From Acidobacteriota bacterium (GTDB lineage: Bacteria; Acidobacteriota; UBA6911; RPQK01; JACQSY01), in assembly GCA_016211085.1 (NCBI GenBank), contig JACQSY010000043.1, positions 22,845 through 86,844 on the forward strand: 64,000 nt of DNA, written 5' to 3'. Below, one piece after another: positions 22,037 through 43,448 of this stretch; the first letter of the stretch is position 1; every line of letters starts with the position of its first letter. The position numbers were made by a program, and so were the translations under genes. The notes under the pieces are model-generated. The model saw only the letters and a program-made list of their open reading frames with translations. It had not been told where the DNA came from and ran no database searches.

Positions 22037-22041
22037 AAGTG

Positions 22042-23931: not shown

Positions 23932-24140
23932 GTTGTACTTTCAGAACCCTCGTCTTGGGCTCAAAAGGCCGCACAGACTGTGCAAAAATCACACACTTTG
24001 CCGTCTGTTTGAAAGCGGGTTTTCACCCATAACTGGTTCTAACCTCCCATCTTGGAATGGCTGTTCGAGTTCACACCCGGTCTCCTATTCAGGGCTAATC
24101 CAGAGAGAAACCGCTGCCTGGGCATGCCGCAATGCGCCAG

Positions 24141-24155
24141 GGCACGGGAATTGCT
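24141..24155 (+). promoter_or_regulatory. sigma-54 (-24/-12) promoter candidate upstream of decaheme cytochrome operon
   Basis: GGCACG-GGAA-TTGCT matches TGGCACG-N4-TTGCW with correct GG/GC spacing, ~140 nt upstream of ATG at 24294, next to a sigma-54 activator gene. Confidence 0.6.
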
Positions 24156-26379: not shown

Positions 26380-27270
26380 ATGATCCCCCCGCTCGTTTTT
26401 CATAATCGCGGTTCTGTAGCGTTTCTTTGGGGACCGGTCACAGTGCTGTTACTACTGATCCTGGCGCTGGGCGCCGGTCCCGCCCGCGCTCAGGCGCCGC
26501 CGGAAAAAGTCGGTAACGAGACTTGCCTCAGCTGTCACGATGTGGAACCGACGCTCTCCAGAACCCCTCATGCTGCCAAAGAATGTGAAAACTGCCACGG
26601 GCCGGGAAGCACTCACGTTGAAAACGGCGGAGATCTGAGCCTGAGCTTTCGGGCCAATCCAGCCCCATGGGCCGTGACGCAGTGTCTTTCCTGCCATCAG
26701 TCCAACACACACCTCACCGCCTTTCGTGCTTCCGCTCATGGAAGAAATTCCGTCGCATGCGTTTCCTGCCACCAGGTTCACCAGGAGCGTGCGGAGTTTG
26801 GACTCCTGAAAAAAGACCAGGCTGCTGTTTGCACGGATTGTCACCCGGCGACTCGGGCAGAGCTGCGCAAACCGTTCCATCACCCGGTTCTGGAAGGGGC
26901 AATGCGTTGCAGCGACTGCCATCAGCCGCACCTGGAAGAACGCAGGCCGCTGCGACGCCTCGTGCATGGATCTGACGATAGTTGCCTCTCGTGTCACTCT
27001 GATAAGAAAGGTCCTTTTATTTTCGAGCACGCTGCGGTAACGGTGAGTGGCTGTGAAACATGCCATCAGCCGCACGGCTCGGTCAATGCGAAGCTGCTCA
27101 GACGAACGCAAGTGCACCAACTTTGCCTGGAATGTCATAGCCGGACCCCGGGAGTGGCCGGCAAACAGCCTCCCGCATTTCACGATATAAGGACCGCGCG
27201 TTTCCGGAACTGCACGACCTGCCACCGTGAAATCCATGGTTCAAATGCCAGCCGGATCTTCTTCAGATAA
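26380..27270 (+). CDS. MtrA/PioA/MtoA-like periplasmic decaheme c-type cytochrome
   Basis: Ten CxxCH in ~300 aa (CLSCH, CENCH, CLSCH, CVSCH, CTDCH, CSDCH, CLSCH, CETCH, CLECH, CTTCH), signal peptide; size/heme density of MtrA. Confidence 0.7.
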   Translation: MIPPLVFHNRGSVAFLWGPVTVLLLLILALGAGPARAQAPPEKVGNETCLSCHDVEPTLSRTPHAAKECENCHGPGSTHVENGGDLSLSFRANPAPWAVTQCLSCHQSNTHLTAFRASAHGRNSVACVSCHQVHQERAEFGLLKKDQAAVCTDCHPATRAELRKPFHHPVLEGAMRCSDCHQPHLEERRPLRRLVHGSDDSCLSCHSDKKGPFIFEHAAVTVSGCETCHQPHGSVNAKLLRRTQVHQLCLECHSRTPGVAGKQPPAFHDIRTARFRNCTTCHREIHGSNASRIFFR

Positions 27271-27281: not shown

Positions 27282-29216
27282 ATGCGCCACGCCTCACTCT
27301 TGTTTCGAGCCGGACTGATCGCTGCCCTGAGCATCGCGCAGTTGACCGCAACGCTTTTCGGAAAGGACGAGCGCTATCGATTCAATCTGGATTTTGGCTA
27401 CCGCTGGAAAGCCGGCTTCCGTGGAAGTAAGGACCTCTACCGCAGCCAGTTGGACCTTGGCGAAGGCCCCAAACTTCTGGCGGGTGACTTTTTCGTCTCG
27501 GCGCCGAAAGGATCCAACCGCTGGTTCGATCGTGTGGAACTGCGAATGAACAGTTGGGGGGGCGAGCCCTATAATTCGGCGCAGCTGAGAGCCGCCAAGG
27601 CAGAGCTCTATGAGCTGTTCTTTAGCCATAGAAATGTCCAGTATTTCAACGCCATTCCTTTTTTTGCCAATCCCCTGTTTGAGCAGGGAGTGGCGGCTAC
27701 GCAGCACCATTTCGACATCTCGCACCGCTTCATCAGCACGGATCTGCGCCTGAGACCCCAAAAAGCGGTGGTGCCGTTTCTCTCTTACCATCGCGCCGTG
27801 CGACAGGGACCCGTCCGCACCAGCCTGGTTGCGCAAGGTGATGAGTTCGTCATCCACTCTCAGATTGAAACGCATTCGGATGATTTCAGCGGCGGCGTGG
27901 AATTGAAGTTTGATGCTCTCTCCCTGCTTTTGGAACAGGGGATGCGCCGCTATCGTGACAAGAGCGCTTTTGATTCGCTTGGATTTCAAGGCGGCAATTC
28001 GCCGCGACCGGTGCTGGGCCGCGACATCACGCTGGAACGCTACCTGGCTCGGAATGACTGGGAAACGGATGTCCCCTTCACCAATGTCGTGCTCGCCGCG
28101 CAACCGCATGCAGACCTCAATGTCCGGGGGAAATTCTCTTATAGCATGTCCGATCTGGAGGGCTTGTTCCGGGATGAGGCAATCGGAACCTTCTTTGGAC
28201 GCCCCGAATCTGCGTTCTTCAAGCAGGAAATTCAGAATGTCTCAGGACGTTCCAAGCAGCCGTCCTTGTTCGCGGACGTGTCCGCAGACTGGCGGGTCAC
28301 AGATCGAATTCAAATACTCGAGCATTTTTATACCCGGCGGCTTCACATTTCAGGTTCTGCGGTTTTGGATCGTGTGCTCTTGCAAACGGAGCCGTTGCTG
28401 GGTCCGCCTGCAAGTCAGATCCAACAACGGAGTCTACTCGACGCGTTCCTTGCCTTCGATCAGGATGTTCAGGAGTTACAAGGCATTGTTTATTTCGCTC
28501 CTCGCCTCTCATTTCGAGTAGGCCATCGCTTCGAACAAAGAAACGTAGAGCTTGCGGAGGAATTTTCCTACAACCGCAACGTGGCGATCGCAGGCGTGAC
28601 CTATGAACATTCTGCGACCAACAGGATTTCCGCCGAATACGAATACGGCCACACCACTCAGGCGGTTTTTCGTCTCGACCCGGTGGATTTTCATCGTGCA
28701 CGGGTGCGCGGACGTCTTTCTCCCATAAATTGGCTGGAGCTGAACGGAAGCATTACCTTGTTTGATAACCGTGATCCACAACGCGAAATCGATTGGACCT
28801 CCCGAGATCGAAACTACACGCTCCAAGTCGGCTTCACGCCGCACCAGAGGGTGACGTTTACGGCGGAATATGAACGAAGCAATTTAAGAAGCAACATTAT
28901 TATCATCGTTCCGCAAACGTTCACGCAGGACCGTTCTGTATACCGGGAGAGAGGTGATTATGGTTCGGCCCTGCTTTCAGTGCAGGTGGTACGCGGCGCA
29001 CAGATCGATCTGGGTTATTCTGTCTGGGGGACAGTGGGCAGTTTCCCCATGAGCTATCATCAGCCCATGGCTCGGCTGGAAATCCCGGTCCACAAGAGGC
29101 TGGTGGTGTACGGCCAGTGGAATCACTACGACTACAACGAAAAGCAACTGCTTCTGCCGCAAGACTACCGTGTCCATCTCGCTCTATTCGGGCTTCGAAT
29201 CTTGTTCGAAAACTGA
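27282..29216 (+). CDS. MtrB/PioB-like outer-membrane beta-barrel (porin partner of decaheme cytochrome)
   Basis: Signal peptide, 644 aa with alternating amphipathic beta-strand pattern, aromatic-rich C-terminus; gene order C-A-B as in mtrCAB. Confidence 0.5.
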   Translation: MRHASLLFRAGLIAALSIAQLTATLFGKDERYRFNLDFGYRWKAGFRGSKDLYRSQLDLGEGPKLLAGDFFVSAPKGSNRWFDRVELRMNSWGGEPYNSAQLRAAKAELYELFFSHRNVQYFNAIPFFANPLFEQGVAATQHHFDISHRFISTDLRLRPQKAVVPFLSYHRAVRQGPVRTSLVAQGDEFVIHSQIETHSDDFSGGVELKFDALSLLLEQGMRRYRDKSAFDSLGFQGGNSPRPVLGRDITLERYLARNDWETDVPFTNVVLAAQPHADLNVRGKFSYSMSDLEGLFRDEAIGTFFGRPESAFFKQEIQNVSGRSKQPSLFADVSADWRVTDRIQILEHFYTRRLHISGSAVLDRVLLQTEPLLGPPASQIQQRSLLDAFLAFDQDVQELQGIVYFAPRLSFRVGHRFEQRNVELAEEFSYNRNVAIAGVTYEHSATNRISAEYEYGHTTQAVFRLDPVDFHRARVRGRLSPINWLELNGSITLFDNRDPQREIDWTSRDRNYTLQVGFTPHQRVTFTAEYERSNLRSNIIIIVPQTFTQDRSVYRERGDYGSALLSVQVVRGAQIDLGYSVWGTVGSFPMSYHQPMARLEIPVHKRLVVYGQWNHYDYNEKQLLLPQDYRVHLALFGLRILFEN

Positions 29217-29446
29217 GGATCTTCTCTTTCGGCGGTTCGTTTATCAATCCTTACACACCCACGATTGTTTAGTATCTCGTCGTTGAAGAAAAAATAATCC
29301 ACGAGTGAATGGTTAGTAGCGAAAGGGTTTTTTTGGGGGAGATTGGCTCATTTATTGGGTGAAATACCATGGGCGCATTGGCCTCTTTCACCTTTAGTTA
29401 ACTTAAAGTTTTTTATGCACAGCAAGTTAGGAGATTGGCCATCGTA

Positions 29447-29462
29447 TGGCGATTCCCTTGCA
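29447..29462 (+). promoter_or_regulatory. possible sigma-54-type promoter (TGGC-N8-TTGCA) before cytochrome c gene
   Basis: tGGCgattcccTTGCAt with canonical GG/GC spacing; lies only ~22 nt before the ATG, so TSS geometry is tight. Confidence 0.3.
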
Positions 29463-29483
29463 TCAACCAACATGGAGGAAATT

Positions 29484-29828
29484 ATGAAGAAAGAATTCCT
29501 GCTCTCCTTAATCGCACTTCTCATTTTCAGCTATTCAATCTTGCTGGCAGCGGATGATGGAGCCGCCGTTTACAAAGGCACCTGTTTGAAATGCCACGGC
29601 GAACTCGGAAAAGGGGATGGCCCGGCCTCCAAGATGTTTAAGCAGGGCCTGGGCGATCTTTCAAGCAAGGCCGGAATGGCAAAGTATTCGGATGAAGATC
29701 TTCAAAAGCTCATCTCCGAAGGCGGCCCCGCCATTGGGAAGTCCAAGGTCATGGCCCCTCAAAAAGGGAAGCTAACCGATGCGCAGATCAGAGCGCTGGT
29801 CGCTTATGTGAAAGGGCTCCAAAAATAG
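29484..29828 (+). CDS. monoheme class-I cytochrome c (periplasmic)
   Basis: Signal peptide then CLKCHG heme motif, distal Met candidate, 114 aa; RBS GGAGGA upstream. Confidence 0.7.
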   Translation: MKKEFLLSLIALLIFSYSILLAADDGAAVYKGTCLKCHGELGKGDGPASKMFKQGLGDLSSKAGMAKYSDEDLQKLISEGGPAIGKSKVMAPQKGKLTDAQIRALVAYVKGLQK

Positions 29829-29950: not shown

Positions 29951-30439
29951 ATGAAATGGTTCCTGAGTGGGCTGGTGATCGCCTTTGTTGTGGGAATTGC
30001 CGCACTGCCGCCCGACCTCCTGCAAAAAAAGGTACAGCAGCCGATCGCTTTTAATCATCTTGTGCATAAGGATTTGGATTGCGCCTCGTGTCACGAGTTT
30101 GTCAAAGAACAGGCCTTCGCCGGATTGCCTTCACTGGATGTTTGCCTGGGTTGTCACGAATCCGCTGTGACGGAGAACCCGGAAGAAGAGAAGATTCGCC
30201 AGTTGGCAGCCGAGGGGAAACCGGTGGTCTGGCAAAGGCTGTTTCGCCAGCCAAGCCACGTGTTTTACTCGCACCGGCGGCACGTCACCATCGCCAAACT
30301 CGACTGTCAAAATTGCCACGGCAAGATGGGGGAGAGTCAGTCGCCTCCCCAATCCGTGCACAACCTCACCATGGAAGAGTGTATTTCCTGCCATGAAGCA
30401 AAAGGGGTTCGTGCTGGTTGCGTCGATTGCCATAGGTAG
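29951..30439 (+). CDS. membrane-anchored pentaheme cytochrome c (ActA/QrcA-like)
   Basis: N-terminal TM helix then five CxxCH (CASCH, CLGCH, CQNCH, CISCH, CVDCH) in 162 aa. Confidence 0.7.
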   Translation: MKWFLSGLVIAFVVGIAALPPDLLQKKVQQPIAFNHLVHKDLDCASCHEFVKEQAFAGLPSLDVCLGCHESAVTENPEEEKIRQLAAEGKPVVWQRLFRQPSHVFYSHRRHVTIAKLDCQNCHGKMGESQSPPQSVHNLTMEECISCHEAKGVRAGCVDCHR

Positions 30440-30558
30440 CAATCTGTTCGAGTAGCTTGCTTGACGCGGGTTCGTGGGGATGGGGAAACGTGGATCGAGC
30501 GATGCGAAGAGCCAGGATTTCTCAGCGAGGATTGAGTAAAACACGCAGGGGGTAAGTA

Positions 30559-32898
30559 ATGAAGTTTAGCCGTAGAGGGTTCGTCAAATTTTCCGCAGGC
30601 TCGGCGGCGGGGTTAGGCCTTGCGGGTGTTTCGCTGAAGACTTTAAGCGATCTGACCGCCGCCACGACAGAAGAGAACTATCCTTCCAAAGGTCCGGAGT
30701 CTTTCCTGAATTCGATTTGCCAGCTTTGCCCGGGCGGTTGTGGTGTCACCGTACGCAAAGTCGGCGATCGTGTGGTTCGCGTCCAGGGAAACAGAAACAG
30801 TCCCATCAACCGGGGCGGTCTGTGCCCGATTGGAGTCGCTTCGCTGCAATATCTCTATCACCCTGCCCGCCTGCGGTCGCCTCTCAAGAGAGAAGGCAGT
30901 TCATGGACCAAGATAAGTTGGGACAGCGCGCTCGGCGAAATCGGGTCCAAACTGAGCTCGACTGTCGGCAGAGGGGAAGGCAGCCACGTAGTGATGCTTT
31001 CGCAGGAACTGCAAGGAGTGTTGCGACAGGTAGCCTCCGATTTTTTGGGCAAGCTGGGATCGAACAATTTGATTGAGACCAGCGGGCCGGGTGATGGAAC
31101 GGGAGTAGCTGTTCGGTTAATGCAAGGTGTACAGAGCCGTCCTGCCTACGACCTCACGAACAGCAATCACATTCTTTGTATTGGGTGTGAGTTGCTGGAA
31201 GGCTGGTCGTCTCCGGTGTGGGTGATGAAGGGCTACTCGCAATTCCGAGGCAAGCGCCCCAGGGGAAGGCTGACCTACGCGGGTTCTCGACAATCCGTGA
31301 CTGCTACCAAGGCGGACACTGCGGTTCAAATCCGACCGGGAACAGAAGGGCTCTTGGCCCTGGGCATCGCTTACGTCTTGATCTCAGAGCGCTTGTACGA
31401 TTTCGAATTCGTCCAATCCCATTGTCAGGGTTTCGAAGATTGGCGGGACGAGAATGGGAGGTGGCACCTCGGGTTTCGCAACATGGTGCTGGAGCGCTAC
31501 CCGTTGAACCTGGTCTCGGAAGTAACCGAGGTTCCCACGGAAAGAATTCTCAAGATTGCCCGTGAGTTCGGGGGAACGCGTCCCGCTCTGGCTCTGGCGG
31601 GTCCAATCGATTCAGTGACCGCCAACAATATTCTGGCAGCGCTCTCGGTTCACGCGCTCAATGCACTCGTAGGAAGCATCGACCGCCGGGGCGGGGTTTT
31701 GCTCCAGTACCCCGATCCGCTGGATACTTCTGAACCTGCTCAAAGCACTCCCTCTTTCCTCGGCAATTTTGCGCAACTTCTCCGGCTGGGCAAGGACCCT
31801 CTGGAAGCGGTAGAGCAGGCATTTGAGTCGGGAAAGCCTTATCTTCCCTCTGCCCTGATTACGCTGGACGCTGATCCCGTCTCTGACTCACATGATGCCA
31901 AAGCGCTTTCAGAAAAATTTCAGCAGGTTCCATTGATTGTCAGTGTTTCCTCTTTTCTAACCGCCACTGCTCAGCTGGCACACTACGTATTGCCCTCAGC
32001 CAGTTTCCTGGAATCTTGGGTGGAGCAGGAAAGCCCGTCGGGAATCCCCTTCCTTTATCACGGACTGGCACAGCCCGCGACCAGCGCGTTTGCAGAGAGT
32101 CGCGCGACCGGTGATATTCTTCTGGGGCTGACGCGATCTTTAGGCGTTCCGGTAAGTGATGAAGATTACGGCGCTCTGCTCAAGAAGAAAATTGCAGGGT
32201 TGTATGAGCGTAAGAGTGGCGCTGTGGCCGGGACGGTTTTCGACCAGCTGTGGCACCAATTGATGGAACAGTCCGGCTGGTGGGCGCCCACTTATGAATC
32301 GCCTGATCAGCTCGTCGAGCAGGTAGCGGCAAAAGGTGGTTGGTGGGACTCCTTTTATCGTTATGAAGATTGGTCCCGAACCCTGAGGAATCCTACAGGA
32401 AAATTCCATTTTAGCGTTTCTGGAATTGAGAGTCTGGTGGGAGGGGAGGCAGCAGGACAACTGGGCAGCTTGCCGCATTTCCAGCCGCCCGCGGAAGGGC
32501 CCGCCTCTGAAAAGTATCATTTTCTGGTCCGCTTCTTTGACCCCCTGGTGGCGGTCTCTCATCAGCCTCCTCTTCCGTTTGTAAGGGAAATTGCAGGAGG
32601 TCTCGTTCAGAATAACGCCGGCATCTGGGTGGAGATCAATGAAGCGGATGCCGAGGAGCTGGGGATCCATAGTGGCGAACTGGTGTGGGTGGAATCCATA
32701 CGAAATCGACTGCAGGTGTTTGCACGGGTCAGCACGGGCGTACTTCCCGGGGTGGTGAATATACCGAGAGGAGTCAGCGGCTGGAGCGGCGACCCCTGGA
32801 GCGTCGGTTCTCCTGTAGCCAGTGCCACACTGGCTGAGCACGGAGCGGATTTCATGCCGAAATGGGGGGAGACTCGAGTGCGGCTCCTCCGTTCGTAG
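30559..32898 (+). CDS. Tat-exported molybdopterin-oxidoreductase-fold subunit (ActB1/QrcB/PsrA-like) with N-terminal [4Fe-4S] motif
   Basis: Tat motif SRRGFVKFSAGSAAGLGLAGV; C-x2-C-x3-C-x(n)-C (CQLCPGGC…C) typical of MopB N-terminus; 779 aa. Confidence 0.75.
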   Translation: MKFSRRGFVKFSAGSAAGLGLAGVSLKTLSDLTAATTEENYPSKGPESFLNSICQLCPGGCGVTVRKVGDRVVRVQGNRNSPINRGGLCPIGVASLQYLYHPARLRSPLKREGSSWTKISWDSALGEIGSKLSSTVGRGEGSHVVMLSQELQGVLRQVASDFLGKLGSNNLIETSGPGDGTGVAVRLMQGVQSRPAYDLTNSNHILCIGCELLEGWSSPVWVMKGYSQFRGKRPRGRLTYAGSRQSVTATKADTAVQIRPGTEGLLALGIAYVLISERLYDFEFVQSHCQGFEDWRDENGRWHLGFRNMVLERYPLNLVSEVTEVPTERILKIAREFGGTRPALALAGPIDSVTANNILAALSVHALNALVGSIDRRGGVLLQYPDPLDTSEPAQSTPSFLGNFAQLLRLGKDPLEAVEQAFESGKPYLPSALITLDADPVSDSHDAKALSEKFQQVPLIVSVSSFLTATAQLAHYVLPSASFLESWVEQESPSGIPFLYHGLAQPATSAFAESRATGDILLGLTRSLGVPVSDEDYGALLKKKIAGLYERKSGAVAGTVFDQLWHQLMEQSGWWAPTYESPDQLVEQVAAKGGWWDSFYRYEDWSRTLRNPTGKFHFSVSGIESLVGGEAAGQLGSLPHFQPPAEGPASEKYHFLVRFFDPLVAVSHQPPLPFVREIAGGLVQNNAGIWVEINEADAEELGIHSGELVWVESIRNRLQVFARVSTGVLPGVVNIPRGVSGWSGDPWSVGSPVASATLAEHGADFMPKWGETRVRLLRS

Positions 32899-32913
32899 CA
32901 GAAGGGCAATTTT

Positions 32914-33597
32914 ATGTCACGTTGGGGAATGATCATTGATCTCGACAAATGCACAGCCTGTCAGGCCTGTGTGGTGGCGTGTAAGGTAGAGAATAACATT
33001 CCATCTCCTCCTGAGGGTGAAGCGCTTAAGAATCGCACCATCTCGTGGATGAAGCTGATTCCACTGCGGAGCGAAGGTTCTGAATCAGAGCGCACGACCT
33101 ACGCACCGGTCGCGTGCCAGCATTGCGACAATCCGCCGTGCATCAAGGTTTGTCCGGTGGATGCGACCAATATTTCCGACGAAGGAATCGTACGCCAGGT
33201 GTATTCGCGCTGCATCGGATGCCGTTACTGCACCAACGCATGCCCTTACACCGTGCGCTACTTCAATTGGTCTGCGCCGCAGTGGCCTGAAGAGAGCAAG
33301 TCTTACTTGAATCCGGATGTCTCTCTGCGGCCTAAAGGCGTGGTTGAAAAATGTACCTTCTGCAATCATCGTTTGCAGAAAGCAAAAGAAATCGCTCGCC
33401 TCGAAGAACGAGAGCTTCACAGCAGTGATTATGTGCCAGCTTGTGTGGAAATCTGCCCGGCCGACGCCTTGGTATTCGGCGACCTTGAAGACTCTGCCTC
33501 GGAAGTTTCCCAACTGGCTAGAAGCCCCCGCGCCTTCCGGCTGCAGGAAGATCTCGGGACAGAGCCCAAAGTAATTTATCTCAGCCAGGGAGAATAG
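32914..33597 (+). CDS. four-cluster 4Fe-4S ferredoxin-type subunit (PsrB/ActB2/QrcC-like)
   Basis: Cys clusters CTACQACVVAC, CQHCDNPPCIKVCP, CIGCRYCTNACP, CTFC…CVEICP. Confidence 0.8.
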   Translation: MSRWGMIIDLDKCTACQACVVACKVENNIPSPPEGEALKNRTISWMKLIPLRSEGSESERTTYAPVACQHCDNPPCIKVCPVDATNISDEGIVRQVYSRCIGCRYCTNACPYTVRYFNWSAPQWPEESKSYLNPDVSLRPKGVVEKCTFCNHRLQKAKEIARLEERELHSSDYVPACVEICPADALVFGDLEDSASEVSQLARSPRAFRLQEDLGTEPKVIYLSQGE

Positions 33598-33600
33598 AAG

Positions 33601-34971
33601 ATGTCGAATGCAACCACTGTACTCGGTCCCGACGAGATATTGCTCGATCCCATCACCAGAACGGGAAAAGGATTTTATTGGCTGGTTGCCGTCTTGGCCT
33701 TGATTGGATTCGGAGGACTGGGAGCCTGGGTTTACCAGCTTATGTTTGGCCTGGGGGTTACCGGATTGAATCGCCCGGTGTATTGGGGAGTGTACATTAC
33801 GAATTTTGTTTTTTTCATCGGGATCAGCCATGCAGGAACCCTGATTTCAGCGATTTTGCGCCTTTGCCATGCGGAGTGGCGTCGGCCCATTACCCGGGCT
33901 GCAGAGGTTATCACCGTCATGGTGCTTTTTTTCGGGGCAGGAAGTGTGATTCTGGATCTGGGACGCCCCGACCGAGCGTTGAATGTTATCTTTCACGGCC
34001 AGGTGCGCTCGCCGCTAATCTGGGACGTGTTGAGCATTTCCACTTATTTAACCGGGAGTATTATTTATCTTTATCTGCCGCTGATCCCCGATATCGCTCT
34101 CCTAAGGGATCGGATGCCCCACCGCCGCATCTATCGCCTGCTGGCGGTTGGTTGGCAAGGTACGCCCAAACAGCATCGCGTGCTTGAGAAAGCCATTGCC
34201 ATCATGGCCGTCATCATCGTTCCCATTGCGGTAAGCGTGCACACCGTGGTGTCCTGGGTCTTTGCAATGACCGTGCAGCCCATGTGGCACAGCACTATTT
34301 TTGGTCCTTACTTTGTCGTGGGCGCGATTTTCTCGGGTATCGCCGCACTGATTGTAGCCATGGCCCTGATCCGGCACTTTTATCATCTGGAAGATTATTT
34401 GAAGCCGGTTTCCTTTAACAATCTTGGTTTGTTGCTGTTAGTGATGAGCCTGCTTTGGCTCTATTTCACCTTCGCGGAATATCTGACCACTTACTATGGA
34501 GCCGAGCCTTTTCACATGACCGTATTTTCCAGCAAGGTTACCGGCCGTTTTGCCATTCCCTTCTGGAGCATGTTTGTTCTGTGTTTTGTGATTCCGGCTG
34601 CAATTCTGGGGAATAAGAAGACCCGGACTGTCAAAGGCTGTGTGATCGCTTCTATTGCCGTGATCATTGGCATGTGGCTGGAGCGCTACATCATAGTGGT
34701 TCCGACGCTTTCACGACCGCGTCTTGCAGTAGAGGTTGTCCCCTACGCCCCCACCTGGGTCGAAATGGCCATGACGGCGAGCTTCTTTTCCCTGTTTATT
34801 CTCCTGTACCTCCTATTTACTAAGTTCTTCCCAATTATTTCCGTCTGGGAAATTAAAGAGGGTAGAGAGAAATCCGTTTCGGACGTAGTGGAGCGGGTTC
34901 AGGGATACCTGCCGGGGGATTCGAGCAACCGCAAAATAGAAACGTTAAAGTCGCAGCTGGGGCATTCATAA
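33601..34971 (+). CDS. NrfD/PsrC-family quinone-interacting integral membrane subunit (ActC/QrcD-like)
   Basis: 456 aa, ~10 TM, NrfD-like N-terminal region (…LNRPVYWGVYITNFVFFIGISHAGTLISA…). Confidence 0.8.
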   Translation: MSNATTVLGPDEILLDPITRTGKGFYWLVAVLALIGFGGLGAWVYQLMFGLGVTGLNRPVYWGVYITNFVFFIGISHAGTLISAILRLCHAEWRRPITRAAEVITVMVLFFGAGSVILDLGRPDRALNVIFHGQVRSPLIWDVLSISTYLTGSIIYLYLPLIPDIALLRDRMPHRRIYRLLAVGWQGTPKQHRVLEKAIAIMAVIIVPIAVSVHTVVSWVFAMTVQPMWHSTIFGPYFVVGAIFSGIAALIVAMALIRHFYHLEDYLKPVSFNNLGLLLLVMSLLWLYFTFAEYLTTYYGAEPFHMTVFSSKVTGRFAIPFWSMFVLCFVIPAAILGNKKTRTVKGCVIASIAVIIGMWLERYIIVVPTLSRPRLAVEVVPYAPTWVEMAMTASFFSLFILLYLLFTKFFPIISVWEIKEGREKSVSDVVERVQGYLPGDSSNRKIETLKSQLGHS

Positions 34972-34991
34972 GAGCCAAGAGGCATTGATCG

Positions 34992-36185
34992 ATGATTTTT
35001 TCAAAATCTTTAGCACGTTTTTCGATTTTCACTTTGGCCATTCTGCCGGCTTCTTTGCTAGCTCAGGAAAAAGAAGAGAACCTGCTCGACGGTAACCCGG
35101 TACACGGCCGAGAGCTTTTCGTTTCCAAGAGCTGCATTGAATGTCACTCGGTGAGGGGCGCGGGGGGGTCTGTCGGTCCGGATCTCGGATTGAAAGTCTT
35201 CAATCGCAGTGTGTACGAGATCTCGGGAATTTTGTGGAATCACTCTCCTTACATGAGCCGCAAGATGCGGCAAATGGGAGTAAGACGGCCGCAGTTTGAA
35301 CCGAGCGAAATGCTCGACCTAGTTTCGTTTTTGTATTTCTTGAATTATTTTGACCCCCCGGGAGACGTCCAGTTGGGACGTCAGCTGTGGGTTGAAAAAA
35401 AATGCTCCAGTTGTCACCCGGTGGAAGGCGAAGGCCCCAAGCTGGCACCCGGGCTGGATAAGATGCAGAGCCCCACAACCTCTGTGTTTCTTGCCCAAAG
35501 TATGTGGAACCACGGTTCGCAGATGCTGGAGACTTTGCGACGCATGAATCTGGATCCGCCTGCTTTTCGTGGAACTGAAATGGTGGACCTAGTGGCTTAC
35601 ATTCGACACATTAACCGCAATCCGAGCCGTCAGCTTTTTAGTCTGGGTGAGCCTCGCCAGGGTGAGAGATTGTTTCGCATTAATGGTTGTGCCTCATGCC
35701 ATGCCGCACAAGGAGCAGCGCGAGCCTCAGCTCCCGACCTGCGAGCGGCACGATTGCAAGCCAGTGTAAGCCAGATTGCCGGCTTGATGTGGAACCATCT
35801 CCCGAACATGCTTTCCAGAATGAGGCAGCAGCAGATGCGTTTCCCGACTTTCTCGGGCCAGGACATGAATCATTTGATTTCCTACCTCTATTCGCTGGCT
35901 TATGTAGGGAAACCGGGAGATCCGCAGAAAGGCGCCACTGTTTATCGCGAGAAGCAATGCCTGAGTTGTCATGGGGAGCCGGGAAAACCTGGGCAGCGCA
36001 TTGGTCCCGACCTGGCGAAGGCCACCCTGCAATCGCCGTTAGGGGCAGCCCCGTTCATGTGGAACCATGCTGTCGAGATGGAAGGTTACATGAAGGAGCG
36101 TAATATCCTGTGGCCTCGATTCGAAGGTACTCAGATGGCTGACCTGCAGGCCTATTTAAAAGCTTCAGCTGCCAAATCGAAATAG
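34992..36185 (+). CDS. tetraheme cytochrome c built from four tandem class-I domains
   Basis: Signal peptide; four ~95-aa repeats each with CxxCH (CIECH, CSSCH, CASCH, CLSCH) and a conserved MWNH…DLV/AYL pattern. Confidence 0.75.
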   Translation: MIFSKSLARFSIFTLAILPASLLAQEKEENLLDGNPVHGRELFVSKSCIECHSVRGAGGSVGPDLGLKVFNRSVYEISGILWNHSPYMSRKMRQMGVRRPQFEPSEMLDLVSFLYFLNYFDPPGDVQLGRQLWVEKKCSSCHPVEGEGPKLAPGLDKMQSPTTSVFLAQSMWNHGSQMLETLRRMNLDPPAFRGTEMVDLVAYIRHINRNPSRQLFSLGEPRQGERLFRINGCASCHAAQGAARASAPDLRAARLQASVSQIAGLMWNHLPNMLSRMRQQQMRFPTFSGQDMNHLISYLYSLAYVGKPGDPQKGATVYREKQCLSCHGEPGKPGQRIGPDLAKATLQSPLGAAPFMWNHAVEMEGYMKERNILWPRFEGTQMADLQAYLKASAAKSK

Positions 36186-36761: not shown

Positions 36762-38060
36762 TTAACCTTTGCTGGCTTCGATCCCGATGACGCCGGGTTG
36801 AAACTGCCGCACTTCCGCAGTACTGACTTCCAGACGTGCCAGAGTGCTCGTGAAGATGCAGAAGATCAGGCCGCCCAAGGCGTAGACGGCGGCCACCATG
36901 GTGATTTCCGGAATGGAAGGCACATAGATGGCCTCGCCTCTTAATGGTTCAAAACGCATTAAAGAAGGCAGGAGAATGTTCACGCGTTCAGCCGCCACGC
37001 CGATCACTGCAAAAAACGAGGCGGTGTGAATTGCCCAGAGTGAGCGCCGCCAGAATCCCAGCAGGAAAAAGGGAATCAAAATCCCAATCAGCATGTCAAA
37101 CCAGAAGAATCCGGAGAAACGGCCCCATATGATCTCCTGCATCATCCGCTGATGGCTGAGACCTCCCGTGTAGCTGATGGTCAAGAACTCACTAAAGAGC
37201 AAGTAAATCAGCAGGGGAAGCAGGAAGAAGAGATAGCGTCCCAGCTTCTCGATGGCCTCTCGGGGCAGCGAAATTCCAAAAAATCGGCGTGCCGCCCCGG
37301 CTCCAAGGATAACGGCACCGATGCCGGACACCATAGCGGAAGCAATAAACAACGGGGCAAGAATGGCGGTGTTCCAGCCGGGTTGCCCCTTGGCCAATCC
37401 GAGAATCCAAGCCGTTACTGAGTGGAGCGCTACTGCGCCGGGCAGGGAGACGATCGAAAGCAACCGCAGCCGCCGGCGATTTTTTTGCTGCGCTTCTTCG
37501 GTTCTGGGCCCAGCCACCCACTCCAGAAACCTCCCCAAGCGATGACGGGGATCCAGTGTGTGCAGCTCCGCGCGCAGGCTGCTCCAAAGCAATGCGATGC
37601 AGAGCACCAGGTAAAGGCTGATGACAGTGACATCCCACAGCAGCGGAGAACGGATATTGGCGTGCATCAAGACGAACAGGGCCCTTTCTGGATGGCCCAT
37701 GTCGAGAATAACGCAGGTTGCCGCCATCAAAAGGAAGGCTAAGGCCAGCACTTCCGCAATGAAAGCAACCGGGCGTAATTCTCGAATCTGAAAAGCGTGA
37801 ACCAGAGCAGAGACAACTATTCCTCCGGCGCTGAGCCCAATGCAAAAGATAAAATTGACGATGTAAATTCCCCAGGTCACGTTAAAATTGAGCCCGGTCA
37901 CCATGAGCCCGTCCTGGAGTTGGCGCTGGTAAAAAAATAATCCCGCGGCCATTATGGCGATGAAAATGATGGGGGCGACCTTGGGGACCAGTGATCCCTT
38001 TGAAGCCGTCCTCCGTCCTGGAAGCGGAACCCAATCGTGAAATTCTCTATCTTGTTTCAT
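36762..38060 (-). CDS. second NrfD/PsrC-family integral membrane protein (ActF-like candidate)
   Basis: 432 aa, polytopic; N-terminal region parallels the NrfD-like protein at 33601 (…VTGLNFNVTWGIYIVNFIFCIGLSAGG…HPERAL…IRSPLLWDV…). Confidence 0.7.
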   Translation of the reverse strand: MKQDREFHDWVPLPGRRTASKGSLVPKVAPIIFIAIMAAGLFFYQRQLQDGLMVTGLNFNVTWGIYIVNFIFCIGLSAGGIVVSALVHAFQIRELRPVAFIAEVLALAFLLMAATCVILDMGHPERALFVLMHANIRSPLLWDVTVISLYLVLCIALLWSSLRAELHTLDPRHRLGRFLEWVAGPRTEEAQQKNRRRLRLLSIVSLPGAVALHSVTAWILGLAKGQPGWNTAILAPLFIASAMVSGIGAVILGAGAARRFFGISLPREAIEKLGRYLFFLLPLLIYLLFSEFLTISYTGGLSHQRMMQEIIWGRFSGFFWFDMLIGILIPFFLLGFWRRSLWAIHTASFFAVIGVAAERVNILLPSLMRFEPLRGEAIYVPSIPEITMVAAVYALGGLIFCIFTSTLARLEVSTAEVRQFQPGVIGIEASKG

Positions 38061-38080: not shown

Positions 38081-38254
38081 TCAAGCGCGGTACTGCAGAT
38101 AACCGATCAACACCGCGAGCGACGTGAACAAAAAAAGTACAACCACGACACCCACCGCCGACCAAACAAACCATTCAAACATGGTGCGCGGTTCCTTGGT
38201 TGTCTTGGAAGTTGCCGCCGCAAGACACCCGGCATCAGCGACGATGCTTTTCAT
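38081..38254 (-). CDS. tiny single-TM protein (57 aa; or 33 aa from internal Met)
   Basis: Reverse-strand ORF MKSIVADAG…MFEWFVWSAVGVVVVLFLFTSLAVLIGYLQYRA, 3-nt spacing from upstream gene and 20 nt before NrfD-like start; below 60-aa ORF-track cutoff. Confidence 0.25.
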   Translation of the reverse strand: MKSIVADAGCLAAATSKTTKEPRTMFEWFVWSAVGVVVVLFLFTSLAVLIGYLQYRA

Positions 38255-38257
38255 AAA

Positions 38258-38500
38258 TCACCTCACTGTGATGCGCTCATTTTTTTGCTCAACAGAAACT
38301 TCCCGGGCATCTGGCTGAACACCGAGGAGCAGATAGGACCCCAACGCGACAATCACCGGGGGCAGGCTGATTAGCCCCATTTCCCACAGGATTTCCACAT
38401 CCAGGTAACCAAAATACCCCCAGCTGAGCCCGATCGCGACCAGGTTGATCATCAGAAAAATTCCGGTTCCCCATAAGATGAATTTTTGTGCCTGCTTCAT
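38258..38500 (-). CDS. small two-TM membrane protein (80 aa)
   Basis: Start MKQAQKFILWGTGIF… preceded by AAGGAGAG RBS; first gene of minus-strand mini-operon with NrfD-like gene. Confidence 0.4.
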   Translation of the reverse strand: MKQAQKFILWGTGIFLMINLVAIGLSWGYFGYLDVEILWEMGLISLPPVIVALGSYLLLGVQPDAREVSVEQKNERITVR

Positions 38501-38745
38501 AATCTCTCCTTTTCCACTCTCCCTATAGCAAAGGCCAAGCCACAAAGTTGCTCTATTTAAATAGCTTAAAATCAATGACTTGTAATTTTGAAGACGCCAC
38601 AGAGCATTTCAAAATAGCACGAGTTTTTTAATAGAATACGAGCAACTGCTTATTTTTCAATAGGGTAGAGGCCGTTTCAATTTGAAAGGGATGTTTTCAA
38701 AATGAAAAGGATTTTTCGGGTAACTCGTGATAAGCGTGAAAAAAC

Positions 38746-40128
38746 TTATTCAGGCAGGTTTTCTTTTAGTTTTCGCCACAGCGTGGTTTGCGAGATGCCG
38801 AGGATTTTGGCCGCTTGCGAGCGGTTGCCTTCGCAAAGGCCGAGAATGCTTCGAATGTGGGCTTCTTCAATCTCGCGCAATGACATTTTCTTGTCTGCAC
38901 CCGAGGATGCGTCCCGCCCTCGCAAATACGCCGGCAGGTGAGACACTACCAACGTTCCGTCGTTTCCGGCGAAAATGACCGCTCGCTCCATGACGTTGCG
39001 TAACTCGCGGACATTTCCCGGCCAGGAGTGGGTCAGCAGAATTTGAAGAGCTTCGGGTGAGATGTTGCTGATATGTTTCTTGAGTTCTCGAGAGAACAGT
39101 TGCAGGAAGTATTTGACCAAGGGCTCGATATCTTCCATTCGCTCCCTCAGCGGCGGCAGCGTCAGGGTCACGGCGCTGATCCGATAGAAAAGATCCTTCC
39201 GAAAGGCTCCTTTCTCGATCTCTTCGCTTAGATTGCGGTTGCTGGCGGCAATCAGGCGCACATCAACCGGGACCTGAGTTTCAGATCCAAGTCGCTTGAT
39301 TTCTTTCTGCTCCAGGGCCCTCAGGAGTTTGCCTTGGACTTCGAGTTTCATTTCCCCAATTTCATCGAGGAACAAGGTGCCTTTGTTTGCTACTTCGAAA
39401 CTGCCACGGTGAACGGCAACGGCCCCTGTAAAGGCACCTTTGACGTGACCGAATAACTCGCTTTCCACCAGAGTCTCCGGCAAAGCGGCACAGTTCACGG
39501 CCACAAAGGGTCCTTCCTTGCGTGTACTGGCTTCATGTATGGCGCGTGCGAGCAGCTCTTTCCCGGTGCCGCTTTCCCCGAGCAGAAGTACGGGGACATT
39601 CTGCTCGGAGACAACCAGAGCTTCCTCGAGCAACCTTCTCATGGTTGGATTGCCGCCGGTAATCATCGTTCCTTGAATCCGTCTCAACTCGCTTTTCAAG
39701 AGGGTATTTTCCTCGGCAAGTCTCTTGCGGTTGAGAATCTTAGCTACCGTGGCGCGTAGTTCAGTGGGTCGGAAAGGCTTGCTGATGTAATCGTCTGCGC
39801 CGGCTTTTATGGACGCCACGGCTGATTCGATAGAGCCATAGCCGGTGATGACCACGACTGAGATGGAACGATCAGCTTCTTTGATTCTCTTCAGCAGTTC
39901 CAGGCCATCCATACCCGGCATGCGGAGGTCGCAGAGCACCAGATCGGCGGTATGATCTTCCAACCATCGGAGTGCCTGGTGTCCGTCAGACGAAACCGCC
40001 ACATCGTAACCGGTGCGGGTCAAAGCCTTGCGCACCGCGTCGCAAATATTCGTCTCGTCGTCCACGACCAGGATATTTCCTTGGTGCTCAAGCGGACTGT
40101 CAGACGTTAGCGGTTCTTCAAGCGACAC
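38746..40128 (-). CDS. sigma-54-dependent response regulator (NtrC family)
   Basis: Receiver (…ILVVDDE…DLVLCDLRMPGMDG…), AAA+ GESGTGKE, ESELFGHVKGAFTGA (GAFTGA), C-terminal Fis HTH. Confidence 0.85.
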   Translation of the reverse strand: MSLEEPLTSDSPLEHQGNILVVDDETNICDAVRKALTRTGYDVAVSSDGHQALRWLEDHTADLVLCDLRMPGMDGLELLKRIKEADRSISVVVITGYGSIESAVASIKAGADDYISKPFRPTELRATVAKILNRKRLAEENTLLKSELRRIQGTMITGGNPTMRRLLEEALVVSEQNVPVLLLGESGTGKELLARAIHEASTRKEGPFVAVNCAALPETLVESELFGHVKGAFTGAVAVHRGSFEVANKGTLFLDEIGEMKLEVQGKLLRALEQKEIKRLGSETQVPVDVRLIAASNRNLSEEIEKGAFRKDLFYRISAVTLTLPPLRERMEDIEPLVKYFLQLFSRELKKHISNISPEALQILLTHSWPGNVRELRNVMERAVIFAGNDGTLVVSHLPAYLRGRDASSGADKKMSLREIEEAHIRSILGLCEGNRSQAAKILGISQTTLWRKLKENLPE

Positions 40129-42549: not shown

Positions 42550-42564
42550 GGTACGAATGTTGCA
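42550..42564 (+). promoter_or_regulatory. sigma-54 (-24/-12) promoter candidate upstream of octaheme cytochrome operon
   Basis: GGTACG-AATG-TTGCA: one mismatch to GGCACG-N4-TTGCA, correct spacing, ~105 nt upstream of ATG 42669, divergent from sigma-54 activator/kinase pair. Confidence 0.5.
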
Positions 42565-43430: not shown

Positions 43431-43448
43431 AGCGGAAAGATTCCAGTT

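Follow-up and report, generated by a model that had tools for sequence, protein, structure and literature searches.

Which inner-membrane complex connects the quinone pool of Acidobacteria to their outer-membrane conduits? According to Baker et al. 2022 (PMC8805035), the mtrCAB clusters of Acidobacteria were without a neighbouring inner-membrane quinone oxidoreductase. Here we consider a 64,000-nucleotide stretch of an Acidobacteriota genome (the window), in which a first-pass annotation of the sequence had placed a five-gene ACIII/Qrc/Psr-like complex at 29951–36185, immediately downstream of mtrCAB-like genes. The five genes are present as five open reading frames at these positions, all on the forward strand, and are separated by gaps of 119, 15, 3 and 20 bp (Table 1).

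Table 1. Genes and elements of the window discussed in the text
Feature	Coordinates	Strand	Characteristics
Second kinase and sigma-54 response regulator pair, upstream of mtrC	20672–23397	+	Pfam
Sigma-54-like -24/-12 element GGGCACGGGAATTGC, candidate promoter	24140–24154	+	Pattern match, one mismatch
MtrC/OmcA-family decahaem, outer-surface cytochrome	24294–26330	+	TIGR03507 494 bits, PF22113 179 bits; 10 CxxCH
MtrA/DmsE-family periplasmic decahaem	about 26380–27270	+	TIGR03508 225 bits; 10 CxxCH
644-aa secreted protein, mtrB position	27282–29216	+	Signal peptide; presumed outer-membrane barrel
c1, monohaem class-I cytochrome c	29484–29828	+	Pfam Cytochrom_C, Cytochrome_CBB3; 1 CxxCH
ActA/QrcA-like membrane-anchored pentahaem cytochrome c	29951–30439	+	162 aa; one N-terminal TM helix; 5 CxxCH
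Tat-exported MopB-fold subunit	30559–32898	+	779 aa; PF04879, PF00384, PF01568 (Molybdop_Fe4S4, Molybdopterin, Molydop_binding)
16-Cys FeS electron-transfer subunit	32914–33597	+	227 aa; four ferredoxin-type Cys groups
ActC-type NrfD-family integral membrane subunit	33601–34971	+	456 aa; Pfam NrfD 119 bits
c4, secreted tetrahaem cytochrome	34992–36185	+	397 aa; four class-I domains (Pfam Cytochrom_C x4, 4 CxxCH); Sec signal peptide
NrfD2, second NrfD-family membrane protein	36762–38060	-	Pfam NrfD 147 bits; convergent with cassette
Sigma-54-dependent response regulator	38746–40128	-	Pfam
Sensor kinase	40118–41677	-	Pfam

A conserved cassette with its own regulators

The five-gene arrangement is a real unit and not a product of chance, because the same genes recur together in other species: among about 80 loci from many phyla, the MopB and FeS genes are present in 80 each, the pentahaem gene in 78, the NrfD gene in 73 and c4 in 65. 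Genes for the MopB subunit occur in at least 409 species representatives. Upstream of the cassette, 29 loci carry a sigma-54 response regulator and 21 a kinase. The window regulator at 38746–40128 is 45–50% identical to these cassette-adjacent regulators, and it and its kinase are likely to be orthologues of the two-component system that immediately precedes the cassette elsewhere; the regulator upstream of mtrC is 37–41% identical to the same proteins. The element GGGCACGGGAATTGC lies 140 bp upstream of mtrC and is suggestive as a promoter for its location alone, as the window holds 11 such matches against 6.0 expected by chance.

A relative of ACIII and Qrc

Comparisons with PDB entries and family models support the subunit identities proposed in the first-pass annotation. 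The pentahaem cytochrome (TM helix at residues 1–26) matches ActA (8k9e_A, 85 bits, E = 3e-23; also 6btm_A, 6f0k_A and 6lod_A), the FeS subunit matches the ActB2 domain of 6f0k_B (193 bits) ahead of ArrB (143 bits) and PsrB (106 bits), and the NrfD-family subunit matches ActC (6f0k_C, 245 bits, E = 1.6e-71, residues 23–419 aligned), with 40 bits for ActF. Among NCBIfam models, the best matches of the pentahaem, MopB and FeS subunits are QrcA (119 bits, cut-off 180), QrcB (288 bits, cut-off 440) and QrcC (290 bits, cut-off 400), all below their cut-offs; the FeS subunit also scores 195 bits against DsrO (cut-off 200), and the NrfD-family subunit 116 bits against DsrP and 47 bits against QrcD.

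Eight of 11 named ActC residues (numbering checked against PMC5928083) are kept in the NrfD-family subunit (W82, I86, F89, L166, D169, V250, S245 and R395), and H139, D253 and P136 are replaced by D119, V220 and V116. The same pattern of kept and replaced residues runs through the family, and the subunit presumably carries a quinone/quinol site. The 16 Cys of the FeS subunit would suffice for four [4Fe-4S] clusters. Its third Cys group reads CIGCRYC (CIGCKKC in ArrB), whereas in all four ACIII structures Thr takes the place of the second Cys (CIGTRYC in 6f0k and 6btm; CVGTKYC in 6lod and 8k9e). With four Cys ligands available, the quinone-proximal cluster is probably a [4Fe-4S] cluster, in contrast to the [3Fe-4S] cluster of ACIII and Qrc. 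The MopB subunit begins with a twin-arginine signal (MKFSRRGFVKF), followed by the FS0 motif C54-x2-C57-x3-C61-x27-C89. The FeS subunit has no signal peptide of its own and is presumably co-exported with MopB through Tat. The FS0 Cys and the Tat arginines are invariant in 118 of 118 MopB homologues, as are all 16 FeS-subunit Cys in 93 of 93 relatives, suggesting a working FeS wire.

B1 (MopB) and B2 (FeS) are separate genes and the cassette ends in a tetrahaem cytochrome, as had been annotated. The accompanying match to the Act core holds for the subunit likenesses but not for FS0 and the four-Cys proximal cluster, which the window proteins keep and which ACIII and Qrc lack. Homologues of ActD and ActF, both part of ACIII, are indeed missing from the cassette; the annotated absence of ActD, ActE and ActF in cis overlooked, however, the second NrfD-family gene, NrfD2, which converges on the cassette from just downstream. 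Finally, the terminal cytochrome has one haem in ACIII and four here. FS0, the four-Cys proximal cluster, the missing ActD and ActF and the four-haem terminus rule out a true ACIII or Qrc, and the cassette appears from its sequence to encode an uncharacterised relative of these two respiratory membrane complexes.

Cytochromes c1 and c4 and the second NrfD

Each repeat of c4 contains a conserved WNHxxxM motif. The protein, which has more than 3,400 homologues of about 400 aa, occupies the ActE position and has no ActE match by sequence or fold, its class-I cytochrome c likeness being at the domain level only; where it occurs in the related loci, it follows NrfD or precedes MopB. We took ATG 29484 as the start of c1 (it follows GGAGG and gives a signal peptide; the program-made ORF begins at 29343). 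In about 13 loci altogether a monohaem homologue immediately precedes the pentahaem gene, among them L003/L026, whose 10-kb flanks are free of Mtr genes. We assign c1 to the cassette rather than to mtr, probably as its soluble or anchored periplasmic carrier.

NrfD2 scores 74 bits against ActC and has no ActF match at E ≤ 0.01. Its orthologues (64–71% identity) are the only NrfD beside the cassette in L005, L006 and L084, and in L084 the gene lies within the operon, after c4. NrfD2 is possibly an alternative or additional membrane anchor.

Recurrent linkage to Mtr-type genes

Both decahaem proteins exceed the cut-offs of their models (209 for TIGR03507 and 192 for TIGR03508); the start of the MtrA-family gene, 26380, was set by a signal-peptide-like N terminus, the program-made ORF starting at 26260. 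The barrel candidate has no Pfam match (PF11854 included), but it has many alternating-hydrophobic stretches, and orthologues fill the equivalent position in L004 (51% identity) and L084 (44%).

Genes of the MtrC, MtrA or MtrB/PioB type lie within 10 kb of the cassette in ten further acidobacterial loci (L004, L012, L014, L017, L018, L024, L030, L040, L078 and L084), upstream in some and downstream in others, in at least three arrangements. Two of these loci encode true PF11854 porins (416 bits in L014 and 374 bits in L030). This recurrence strengthens the earlier proposal that the cassette is coupled to the adjacent conduit, a functional link that we infer. The 270-bp gap between the barrel gene and c1 holds a T-run and is a possible transcript boundary, so that mtr and the cassette may be transcribed separately.

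Direction of electron flow

The explanation that we favour, with about an even chance of being correct, is a quinol:cytochrome oxidoreductase that serves the conduit, oxidising quinol and sending electrons outward. The ActC-like subunit would bind menaquinol at the periplasmic face and pass its electrons to the proximal cluster of the 16-Cys subunit and from there to the membrane-anchored pentahaem cytochrome; a second route may run along the complete FeS wire to the retained FS0 of MopB and on to c4. Fe(III), Mn(IV), humic substances or similar compounds may be the final acceptors. Outward flow is suggested by the presence of MtrC in the window and by the four-Cys proximal cluster, a type found in quinol-oxidising CISM reductases (Arr, Psr, Nrf and Dms). 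The ActC-like NrfD argues the same way, as ACIII oxidises quinol (PMC5928083). The ArrA/NapA/PsrA-like fold of MopB, the 270-bp gap before c1 and the Mtr-free relatives of the cassette weigh against this reading. Class-I cytochromes with a conserved Met are usually of high potential, which makes c1 and c4 a poor fit for feeding low-potential MtrA-type haems. Also against outward flow, the neighbouring module in Terriglobales and Blastocatellia comprises MtrA, MtrB/PioB and a monohaem cytochrome, without MtrC, and resembles the Mto/Pio electron-uptake layout.

Flow in the opposite direction, which we consider rather unlikely, would make the complex a Qrc-like quinone reductase or a reversed ACIII; electrons from Fe(II), reduced minerals, humics or a partner cell would enter by the conduit, and c1 and c4 would relay them to the quinone pool and perhaps an oxidase. 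Three subunits have their best family matches in Qrc, a menaquinone-reducing complex (PMC6303296); c1 and c4 belong to the class-I cytochromes, like MtoD in the Mto uptake pathway; L012, L014, L018 and L030 have the MtrC-less Mto/Pio-type set (MtrA, MtrB/PioB porin and monohaem) beside the cassette; and in neutrophilic Fe(II) oxidisers the inner-membrane partner has been suggested to be ACIII (PMC5566968). However, the window encodes a full MtrC, c1 barely resembles MtoD (4xxl, E = 0.079), the NrfD-family subunit scores far lower against QrcD than against ActC, a four-Cys site stands where Qrc and ACIII have a [3Fe-4S] proximal cluster, and neither terminal oxidase nor carbon-fixation genes were found among the scanned window ORFs.

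It is less probable still that the complex is a general-purpose, ACIII-like quinol:cytochrome c oxidoreductase that feeds class-I cytochromes of the periplasm and, through them, respiration with oxygen or nitrogen oxides, its place beside mtr having no mechanistic meaning. Class-I cytochromes commonly pass electrons to haem-copper oxidases, the cassette has its own conserved sigma-54 two-component system, Rieske/cytochrome b complexes adjoin it instead in 15–21 loci, and a transcript boundary may precede c1. Moreover, at least 80 species from a wide range of phyla carry the cassette. Most family members (in Thermodesulfobacteriota, Aminicenantes, Planctomycetota and others) lack Mtr genes in their 10-kb flanks, so extracellular electron transfer cannot be what the family does in general. 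Against this stand the ten further Mtr-linked acidobacterial loci; in a genome of about 5 Mb, random placement would bring two loci into a common 20-kb span in roughly 0.4% of cases, a rough estimate from assumed sizes and not a computed value. In addition, no oxidase or N-oxide reductase gene recurs near the cassette in the neighbour clustering, in which the larger clusters were annotated, and the published 'qrcABCD' of a Terriglobia MAG, possibly of the same family, was transcribed under anoxic conditions (PMC10564751).

A MopB subunit that has probably lost molybdenum

Alignment of the Mo-ligand position, as suggested in the first-pass annotation, pairs Gly178 of the window MopB with the Cys ligand in NapA, acetylene hydratase and Fdh, and Pro177 with that in ArrA. 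Of 118 homologues, 70 have Leu in this column and only 8 have Cys. The window subclade has further changed CP[KR]G to CPIG, losing the K/R after the fourth FS0 Cys, [DE]PR to GSR and GxN to GCE, all motifs kept by most family members. Scores against the models of true Mo enzymes fall stepwise from ligand-Cys members (ArrA, 265–418; PhsA, 330–352) through SGL[DE] members (229–298 and 279–297) to the window subclade (111 and 176–181). As the ligand residue is gone, the window MopB has most probably lost Mo/W-bisPGD, in which case it would be a scaffold and electron-transfer subunit rather than a catalyst. Arsenite oxidase binds Mo-bisPGD without a protein ligand, and loss of the Cys is thus no proof of Mo loss. 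The genome also encodes another Mo enzyme and a NarJ-type chaperone, making a supply of Mo cofactor likely.

An ordinary sulfur-compound reductase with all Mo ligands, the outcome against which the annotation had set its reading, is ruled out by the Gly/Pro ligand site and the ActC, ActB2 and ActA best matches of the partners; the window MopB itself scores lower against PhsA (181 bits) and ArrA (111 bits) than against QrcB. We consider it very unlikely that the complex is a true Mo/W-bisPGD enzyme of the Psr/Phs/Arr lineage whose protein ligand is unusual or absent, with an unspecified substrate in the periplasm and the two cytochromes as extra points of electron entry or exit. In favour of such an enzyme, FS0 and the full 4x4-Cys wire are retained just as catalytic CISM enzymes have them, the predicted fold (AF2, pLDDT 80) is closest to ArrA (Foldseek, TM 0.74) and also resembles NapA and PsrA, with ActB absent from the top 50 matches, the eight ligand-Cys members score as high against ArrA and PhsA as against QrcB, most members keep the three motifs and the cofactor is probably available. 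However, the window protein has lost both ligand and motifs, it has the family's lowest ArrA and PhsA scores, the neighbour analysis of related loci shows no TorD/DmsD/NarJ-type chaperone conserved alongside the cassette, and ActA/ActC-type partners go with cofactor-less MopB domains (PMC5928083).

Under the favoured reading of outward quinol oxidation, the complex would be the inner-membrane partner of the MtrC/MtrA/barrel conduit in this acidobacterial lineage. The cassette is the best candidate yet for the missing inner-membrane link from the quinone pool to the conduit in Acidobacteria.

A putative quinone-oxidoreductase cassette beside mtr genes

The five open reading frames (ORFs) that the first-pass annotation assigned to a quinone-interacting complex were all recovered on the forward strand with identical boundaries (see table), and their short intergenic distances (119, 15, 3 and 20 bp) amount to tight packing. 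They encode a pentahaem cytochrome, a MopB-fold subunit that matches all three Pfam domains of Mo-bisPGD catalytic subunits, an iron–sulfur (FeS) protein, an NrfD-family membrane protein and a tetrahaem cytochrome (c4). Upstream of this cassette lie decahaem cytochromes of the OmcA/MtrC family (TIGR03507, 494 bits) and the DmsE/MtrA family (TIGR03508, 225 bits), a secreted protein of 644 amino acids in the position of mtrB and then a monohaem class-I cytochrome c (c1). A database record that is 100% identical to the MopB subunit comes from an Acidobacteria MAG. Candidates for additional small conserved cassette genes proved to be shadow ORFs that overlap real genes.

An A/T-rich stretch and a GGGTTTTTTTGG run occur in the gap that separates the presumed barrel gene from c1, and this gap may mark a transcript boundary between the mtr genes and the cassette. 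Scanning the window for sigma-54 promoters returned 11 matches against 6 expected, which is not significant overall, and the promoter and terminator scans showed no excess over shuffled controls.

Features of the cassette and of other parts of the window
Feature	Position	Strand	Remarks
Operon of the type II DMSO-reductase (Nar/Nxr/Ebd) kind	9742-18794	+	
Small DUF1670 protein	23566-23931	+	between upstream two-component system and mtrC
mtrB-slot protein, 644 aa	27282-29216	+	
Gap between barrel gene and c1, 270 bp	29217-29483		
Pentahaem cytochrome, 162 aa	29951-30439	+	5 CxxCH; one N-terminal hydrophobic helix, TM residues 1-26
MopB-fold subunit, 779 aa	30559-32898	+	twin-arginine signal; C54-x2-C57-x3-C61-x27-C89; Pfam
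FeS protein, 227 aa	32914-33597	+	16 Cys in four ferredoxin-type groups; no signal peptide
NrfD-family membrane protein, 456 aa	33601-34971	+	
Tetrahaem cytochrome c4, secreted, 397 aa	34992-36185	+	four class-I cytochrome c domains, one CxxCH each
NrfD2, NrfD family	36762-38060	-	convergent, just 3' of cassette
Tiny predicted membrane ORFs	38081-38254, 38258-38575	-	precede NrfD2, with a sigma-54 two-component system
Second quinone module	42486-45388	+	
hemA; ccmE	45584; 46576		3' of second quinone module
Tandem pair of FeoB ferrous-iron transporters	47864-52377	+	
2-oxoacid:ferredoxin oxidoreductase	54541-57670		3' of FeoB pair
NapC/NirT-like cytochrome, 500 aa	57864-59366	+	six CxxCH and one CxxxCH

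Subunits of the ACIII type with a complete FeS wire

[quoted passage not shown] The pentahaem cytochrome resembles the membrane-anchored ActA, and its best PDB matches are the four ActA chains (E values from 3e-23 to 4e-16; top score, 85 bits). As in ACIII, a Tat-exported MopB-like module is combined with a four-cluster FeS module; the highest score of the FeS protein is on the ActB B2 domain (193 bits), with ArrB and PsrB behind. The two modules are encoded separately, as are actB1 and actB2 in some ACIIIs according to the account of Refojo 2010 in PMC9386147. The long NrfD subunit is of the ActC type, matching ActC of all four structures (6f0k_C: 245 bits, E = 1.6e-71, residues 23–419); its match to ActF is weak, and there is none to PsrC at E ≤ 0.01. 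Most residues of the ActC quinol pocket are retained (W82, I86, F89, L166, D169 and V250, with S245 and R395 also having equivalents), whereas throughout the family Asp stands in place of H139 and Val in place of D253; P136 is also not kept. The pentahaem, MopB-fold, separate FeS and NrfD identities proposed in the first pass are upheld by the structure and NCBIfam matches.

Other features set the cassette apart from ACIII. ActB1 carries no prosthetic group (PMC5928083), whereas the MopB subunit retains the Cys residues of FS0, its [4Fe-4S] motif, and is predicted to bind that cluster. In all four ACIII structures, Thr occupies the second Cys position of group III of the FeS module (CIGTRYC or CVGTKYC), and because this Cys is missing, a [3Fe-4S] cluster sits beside the ACIII quinol site (the three other clusters are [4Fe-4S]). 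The cassette instead has four Cys residues at this proximal cluster (CIGCRYC, including Cys103), and all 16 Cys residues of the FeS protein are invariant in 93 of 93 relatives. The terminal subunit is a class-I cytochrome c in both complexes, but c4 is a tetrahaem protein with a Sec signal, whereas ActE is a monohaem lipoprotein. The likeness of c4 to ActE is confined to the class-I domain; neither sequence nor fold supports homology. No oxidase genes adjoin the cassette, and neither ActD, ActF nor an extra conserved membrane gene occurs in it in any of the approximately 80 loci compared. With FS0, a four-Cys proximal cluster, no ActD or ActF and no ActE-type terminus, a canonical ACIII was rejected. 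With FS0 and all 16 Cys residues retained alongside ActA- and ActC-type partners, the family thus joins haem and membrane subunits of the ACIII type to an FeS wire as complete as that of a catalytic molybdoenzyme.

The first-pass annotation stated that ActD, ActE and ActF are absent in cis. This holds in that no ActD or ActF homologue was found, but a second NrfD gene (NrfD2) lies close by on the 3' side. NrfD2 matches ActC weakly and retains the pocket motifs D-x-G-x-P and WD; its orthologues (64–71% identity) are the sole cassette-adjacent NrfD in three loci of other genomes (L005, L006 and L084), whereas locus L004 has the ActC type only. NrfD2 was accordingly rejected as a counterpart of ActF: its pocket motifs are intact, it has no ActF match at E ≤ 0.01 and it takes the place of the ActC-type subunit in those three loci. 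From these sequence comparisons, the ActC-type and NrfD2-type anchors look interchangeable, and the window genome has both. The NrfD2 region has no FeS partner gene of its own.

The gene order also recalls Qrc (QrcABCD), a menaquinone reductase that takes its electrons from type I cytochrome c3; there, too, a multihaem cytochrome is accompanied by a MopB-like, an FeS and a lone NrfD subunit, each with a gene of its own. In the FeS protein of the cassette, a Tyr residue (Y105) lies between two proximal-cluster Cys residues, as does Y113 of QrcC (PMC13059093). The pentahaem, MopB and FeS subunits score best on the NCBIfam models for QrcA, QrcB and QrcC, and yet every one falls under its equivalog cut-off (119 against 180, 288 against 440 and 290 against 400 bits), as does the NrfD subunit on QrcD (47 against 570). 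Other members of the MopB family score 237–370 bits on QrcB, likewise under the cut-off. According to published descriptions, on which the Qrc side of this comparison is based rather than on alignment, QrcB is devoid of cofactors and QrcC holds a single [3Fe-4S] cluster (PMC13059093 and PMC8076601), whereas the cassette has FS0 and 16 Cys residues. Its NrfD is ActC-like rather than QrcD/HybB-like, and it has two cytochromes beyond the Qrc set, one a class-I tetrahaem and the other a monohaem. Qrc belongs to sulfate reducers, whereas the host here is not a Desulfobacterota sulfate reducer; the ORFs scanned near the cassette include no cytochrome c3, hydrogenase or formate dehydrogenase. A canonical Qrc was rejected because all four subunits fall under the cut-offs and FS0 and the 16 Cys residues are kept. 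Genes annotated as ‘qrcABCD’, which may or may not be of the cassette family, are reported to be transcribed under anoxic conditions in a Terriglobia MAG (PMC10564751).

A published counterpart is cluster 4 of the MBNT15 bacterium SHF-111, reported as ‘ACIII-like’ with a tetrahaem ‘ActE-like’ subunit and a proposed role in iron reduction (Begmatov et al. 2022, PMC9386147); our literature search returned no other description of a tetrahaem variant. By its description, rather than by sequence, this cluster follows the same architectural idea as the cassette. It is said to include ActD, has no link to MtrCAB and was reported as a genome annotation without cofactor-motif analysis.

Stepwise loss of the molybdenum ligand

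The first-pass annotation left open whether the MopB subunit binds Mo. In pairwise alignments, C140 of NapA, C141 of acetylene hydratase and the ligand Cys of two formate dehydrogenases fall on Gly178 of the window protein, and the ligand Cys of ArrA falls on Pro177, leaving Gly or Pro at the ligand position and no Cys, Sec, Ser or Asp. Among 118 aligned homologues, this column holds Leu in 70, Cys in only 8 and Gly, Thr or Met in 7 each, whereas the four FS0 Cys residues and the Tat RR pair are invariant in all 118. Asp179 was rejected as a NarG-like ligand: members that keep the Cys read G-C-[DE], so the conserved acidic residue follows the ligand and does not substitute for it.

The subclade to which the window protein belongs (51–63% identity) has also changed motifs that are common to real enzymes and most MopB relatives, with CP[KR]G becoming CPIG, [DE]PR becoming GSR and GxN becoming GCE. 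Scores on true-enzyme models drop stepwise across the family, from members with the ligand Cys (ArrA, 265–418; PhsA, 330–352) through those reading SGL[DE] (229–298 and 279–297) to the subclade of the window (111 and 176–181). The eight Cys-type members (P0022, P0067, P0070, P0076, P0089, P0097, P0118 and P0119; for example, in locus L013) may be true molybdoenzymes within the same cassette; the four that were scanned (P0022, P0067, P0076 and P0097) score as high on ArrA and PhsA as on QrcB.

The cassette was also compared with the Psr/Phs/Arr reductases (PsrABC, 2vpw; ArrAB, 6cz7). Shared features are the FS0 motif, Tat export, and a beta subunit with four four-Cys clusters and no signal peptide of its own, the group III pattern being identical to that of ArrB (CIGCKKC). 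The MopB sequence aligns better with acetylene hydratase, ArrA, NapA and PsrA than with ActB1 (27–35 bits), and its AlphaFold model (pLDDT 80) is still real-enzyme-like, being closest to ArrA (TM 0.74), NapA, FdhH and PsrA (TM 0.68–0.74 for ArrA, NapA and PsrA). By contrast, the ligand column is empty of Cys, Sec, Ser and Asp, the pterin motifs are degraded in the window subclade, the NrfD has no PsrC match and these reductases lack the two cytochrome subunits of the cassette. An ordinary Psr/Phs/Ttr reductase, the alternative raised in the first pass, was rejected for the window, given its ActC- and ActA-type partners, the absent ligand Cys and scores far below the family cut-offs (PhsA, 181 against 694; ArrA, 111 against 1600; TtrA, 44 against 1750). 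Judged by its sequence, the MopB subunit has probably lost its pterin cofactor, and that the complex is a true molybdoenzyme seems very improbable. Arsenite oxidase binds Mo without any protein ligand, and for this reason the sequence is no proof of cofactor loss.

Distribution and linkage to Mtr conduits

Relatives of the MopB subunit occur in at least 409 species representatives (one genome scanned per species). Among the best 80 of these, to which the neighbourhood counts refer, are Acidobacteriota, Thermodesulfobacteriota/Syntrophales, Aminicenantes, Planctomycetota, Nitrospinota, NC10, Zixibacteria, Ignavibacteria and Binatia. MopB and the FeS protein are present in 80 loci, the pentahaem cytochrome in 78, NrfD in 73 and the tetrahaem cytochrome in 65; the tetrahaem gene lies 3' of NrfD or 5' of MopB, frequently in two copies. 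Upstream of the cassette, 29 loci have a sigma-54 response regulator and 21 a kinase. A Rieske/cytochrome b complex and a GltD-like subunit follow on the 3' side in 15–21 loci, mainly of Thermodesulfobacteriota. In these loci (L037, L039, L041, L055 and L063, among others), the Rieske/cytochrome b genes are on the same strand, 5–11 kb 3' of the MopB gene, together with a 594-amino-acid GltD-like FAD/NAD(P)-FeS protein, a multihaem cytochrome and, upstream, a further FeS–NrfD pair.

Mtr-type genes lie within 10 kb of the cassette in ten other loci (L004, L012, L014, L017, L018, L024, L030, L040, L078 and L084), all of them acidobacterial or unclassified. The arrangements differ: mtrC, mtrA and a barrel gene precede the cassette in the window, L004 and L084; mtrC is directly upstream in L024; MtrA, a true PF11854 porin (416 bits) and a monohaem cytochrome follow it in L014; and a monohaem cytochrome, MtrA and a PF11854 porin (374 bits) precede it in L030. 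The chief argument for a functional Mtr connection is that this linkage recurs while its layout varies, and the recurrence lends support to the first-pass proposal of a conduit-coupled quinol complex. A general respiratory role with no relation to Mtr accordingly seems improbable.

The mtrB-slot protein of the window has no Pfam match, including to MtrB_PioB (PF11854). Orthologues occupy the same position in L004 (1995–4022) and L084 (1555–3513), and these proteins may form a divergent barrel family; L084 additionally encodes a second MtrA together with a true PF11854 porin. The comparison with MtoD did not support c1 as its orthologue (E = 0.079).

Alone among Mtr groups, the acidobacterial mtrCAB clusters have been reported to have no inner-membrane quinone oxidoreductase nearby, neither CymA, NetBCD nor MtoC (Baker et al. 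2022, PMC8805035). On the basis of gene neighbourhoods, the cassette is a candidate for this inner-membrane partner in Acidobacteria. It would share with CymA, NetBCD and MtoC the proposed role of linking the quinone pool to a porin–cytochrome conduit, and its genes likewise adjoin the conduit, but the proteins are unrelated, CymA being a NapC/NirT tetrahaem cytochrome and NetBCD being Nrf-like.

Direction of electron flow

We propose that menaquinol would be oxidised at the ActC-like subunit, with electrons passing to the proximal four-Cys cluster and leaving through the pentahaem cytochrome; a further exit may run along the FeS wire to FS0 and on to the tetrahaem cytochrome. Periplasmic cytochromes would then carry the electrons to the conduit. 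A four-Cys proximal cluster is typical of quinol-oxidising reductases, and together with the presence of MtrC and the ActC-type NrfD it counts for outward flow. An outward quinol dehydrogenase is the reading that we favour, at about even odds. Two features count against outward flow: both c1 and c4 belong to class I and have a conserved Met (WNHxxxM in each c4 repeat), a type of cytochrome that usually has a high potential, and the partners in Terriglobales and Blastocatellia are without MtrC and look like uptake modules of the Mto/Pio type. That the same complex runs in reverse is rather unlikely.

The FeS2–4 wire of ACIII has no known partner and its role has been called elusive (PMC5928083). 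A more speculative reading, which we hold to be doubtful as a whole, joins these observations: the family would preserve a stage intermediate between molybdoenzymes with catalytic activity and the cofactor-less ACIII and Qrc, with a branched wire and a bidirectional Mtr module. FS0 would have outlasted the loss of Mo because electrons still use the entire FeS wire as a second branch, with the tetrahaem cytochrome at its end. In Acidobacteria, this branched complex, its ActC and NrfD2 types of anchor being interchangeable, would supply the inner-membrane module that Mtr lacks, and could work in either direction.

Other redox genes in the window

The operon of the type II DMSO-reductase kind encodes a 1,153-amino-acid MopB protein, a 526-amino-acid NarH-like FeS protein, a NarJ-type chaperone, a 553-amino-acid protein in which two class-I cytochrome c domains are fused to an EB_dh haem-b domain, and a 439-amino-acid protein with no Pfam match. 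This operon indicates that the window genome makes real molybdoenzymes. The second quinone module comprises an octahaem cytochrome (314 amino acids), a four-cluster FeS protein (248 amino acids) and an NrfD protein (448 amino acids). One homologue of the NapC/NirT-like cytochrome lies directly 3' of the cassette NrfD in L084 (15586–17073; 38% identity), and another is found in the Ignavibacteriales locus L067 (48% identity). The FeoB pair and the 2-oxoacid:ferredoxin oxidoreductase would fit an anaerobic life in Fe(II)-rich surroundings.

Implications

The cassette, an uncharacterised but widely distributed variant on the ACIII/Qrc theme, is nothing categorically new. With at least 409 species representatives, the family extends across phyla of soil, groundwater and sediment, where its genes are at present loosely annotated as ‘molybdopterin oxidoreductase’, ‘selenocysteine-containing dehydrogenase’ or ‘Qrc’, labels that distort metabolic reconstructions. 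Two open questions become testable. The window locus and the ten related loci provide a specific candidate for the missing quinone oxidoreductase of acidobacterial Mtr systems. The family, in which ACIII-type haem and membrane subunits accompany a complete FeS wire while the Mo ligand was lost in steps, offers a way to ask why ACIII retains its FeS wire and how catalytic subunits turn into scaffolds; were the intermediate reading true, it would supply a function for the ‘elusive’ FeS2–4 wire of ACIII.
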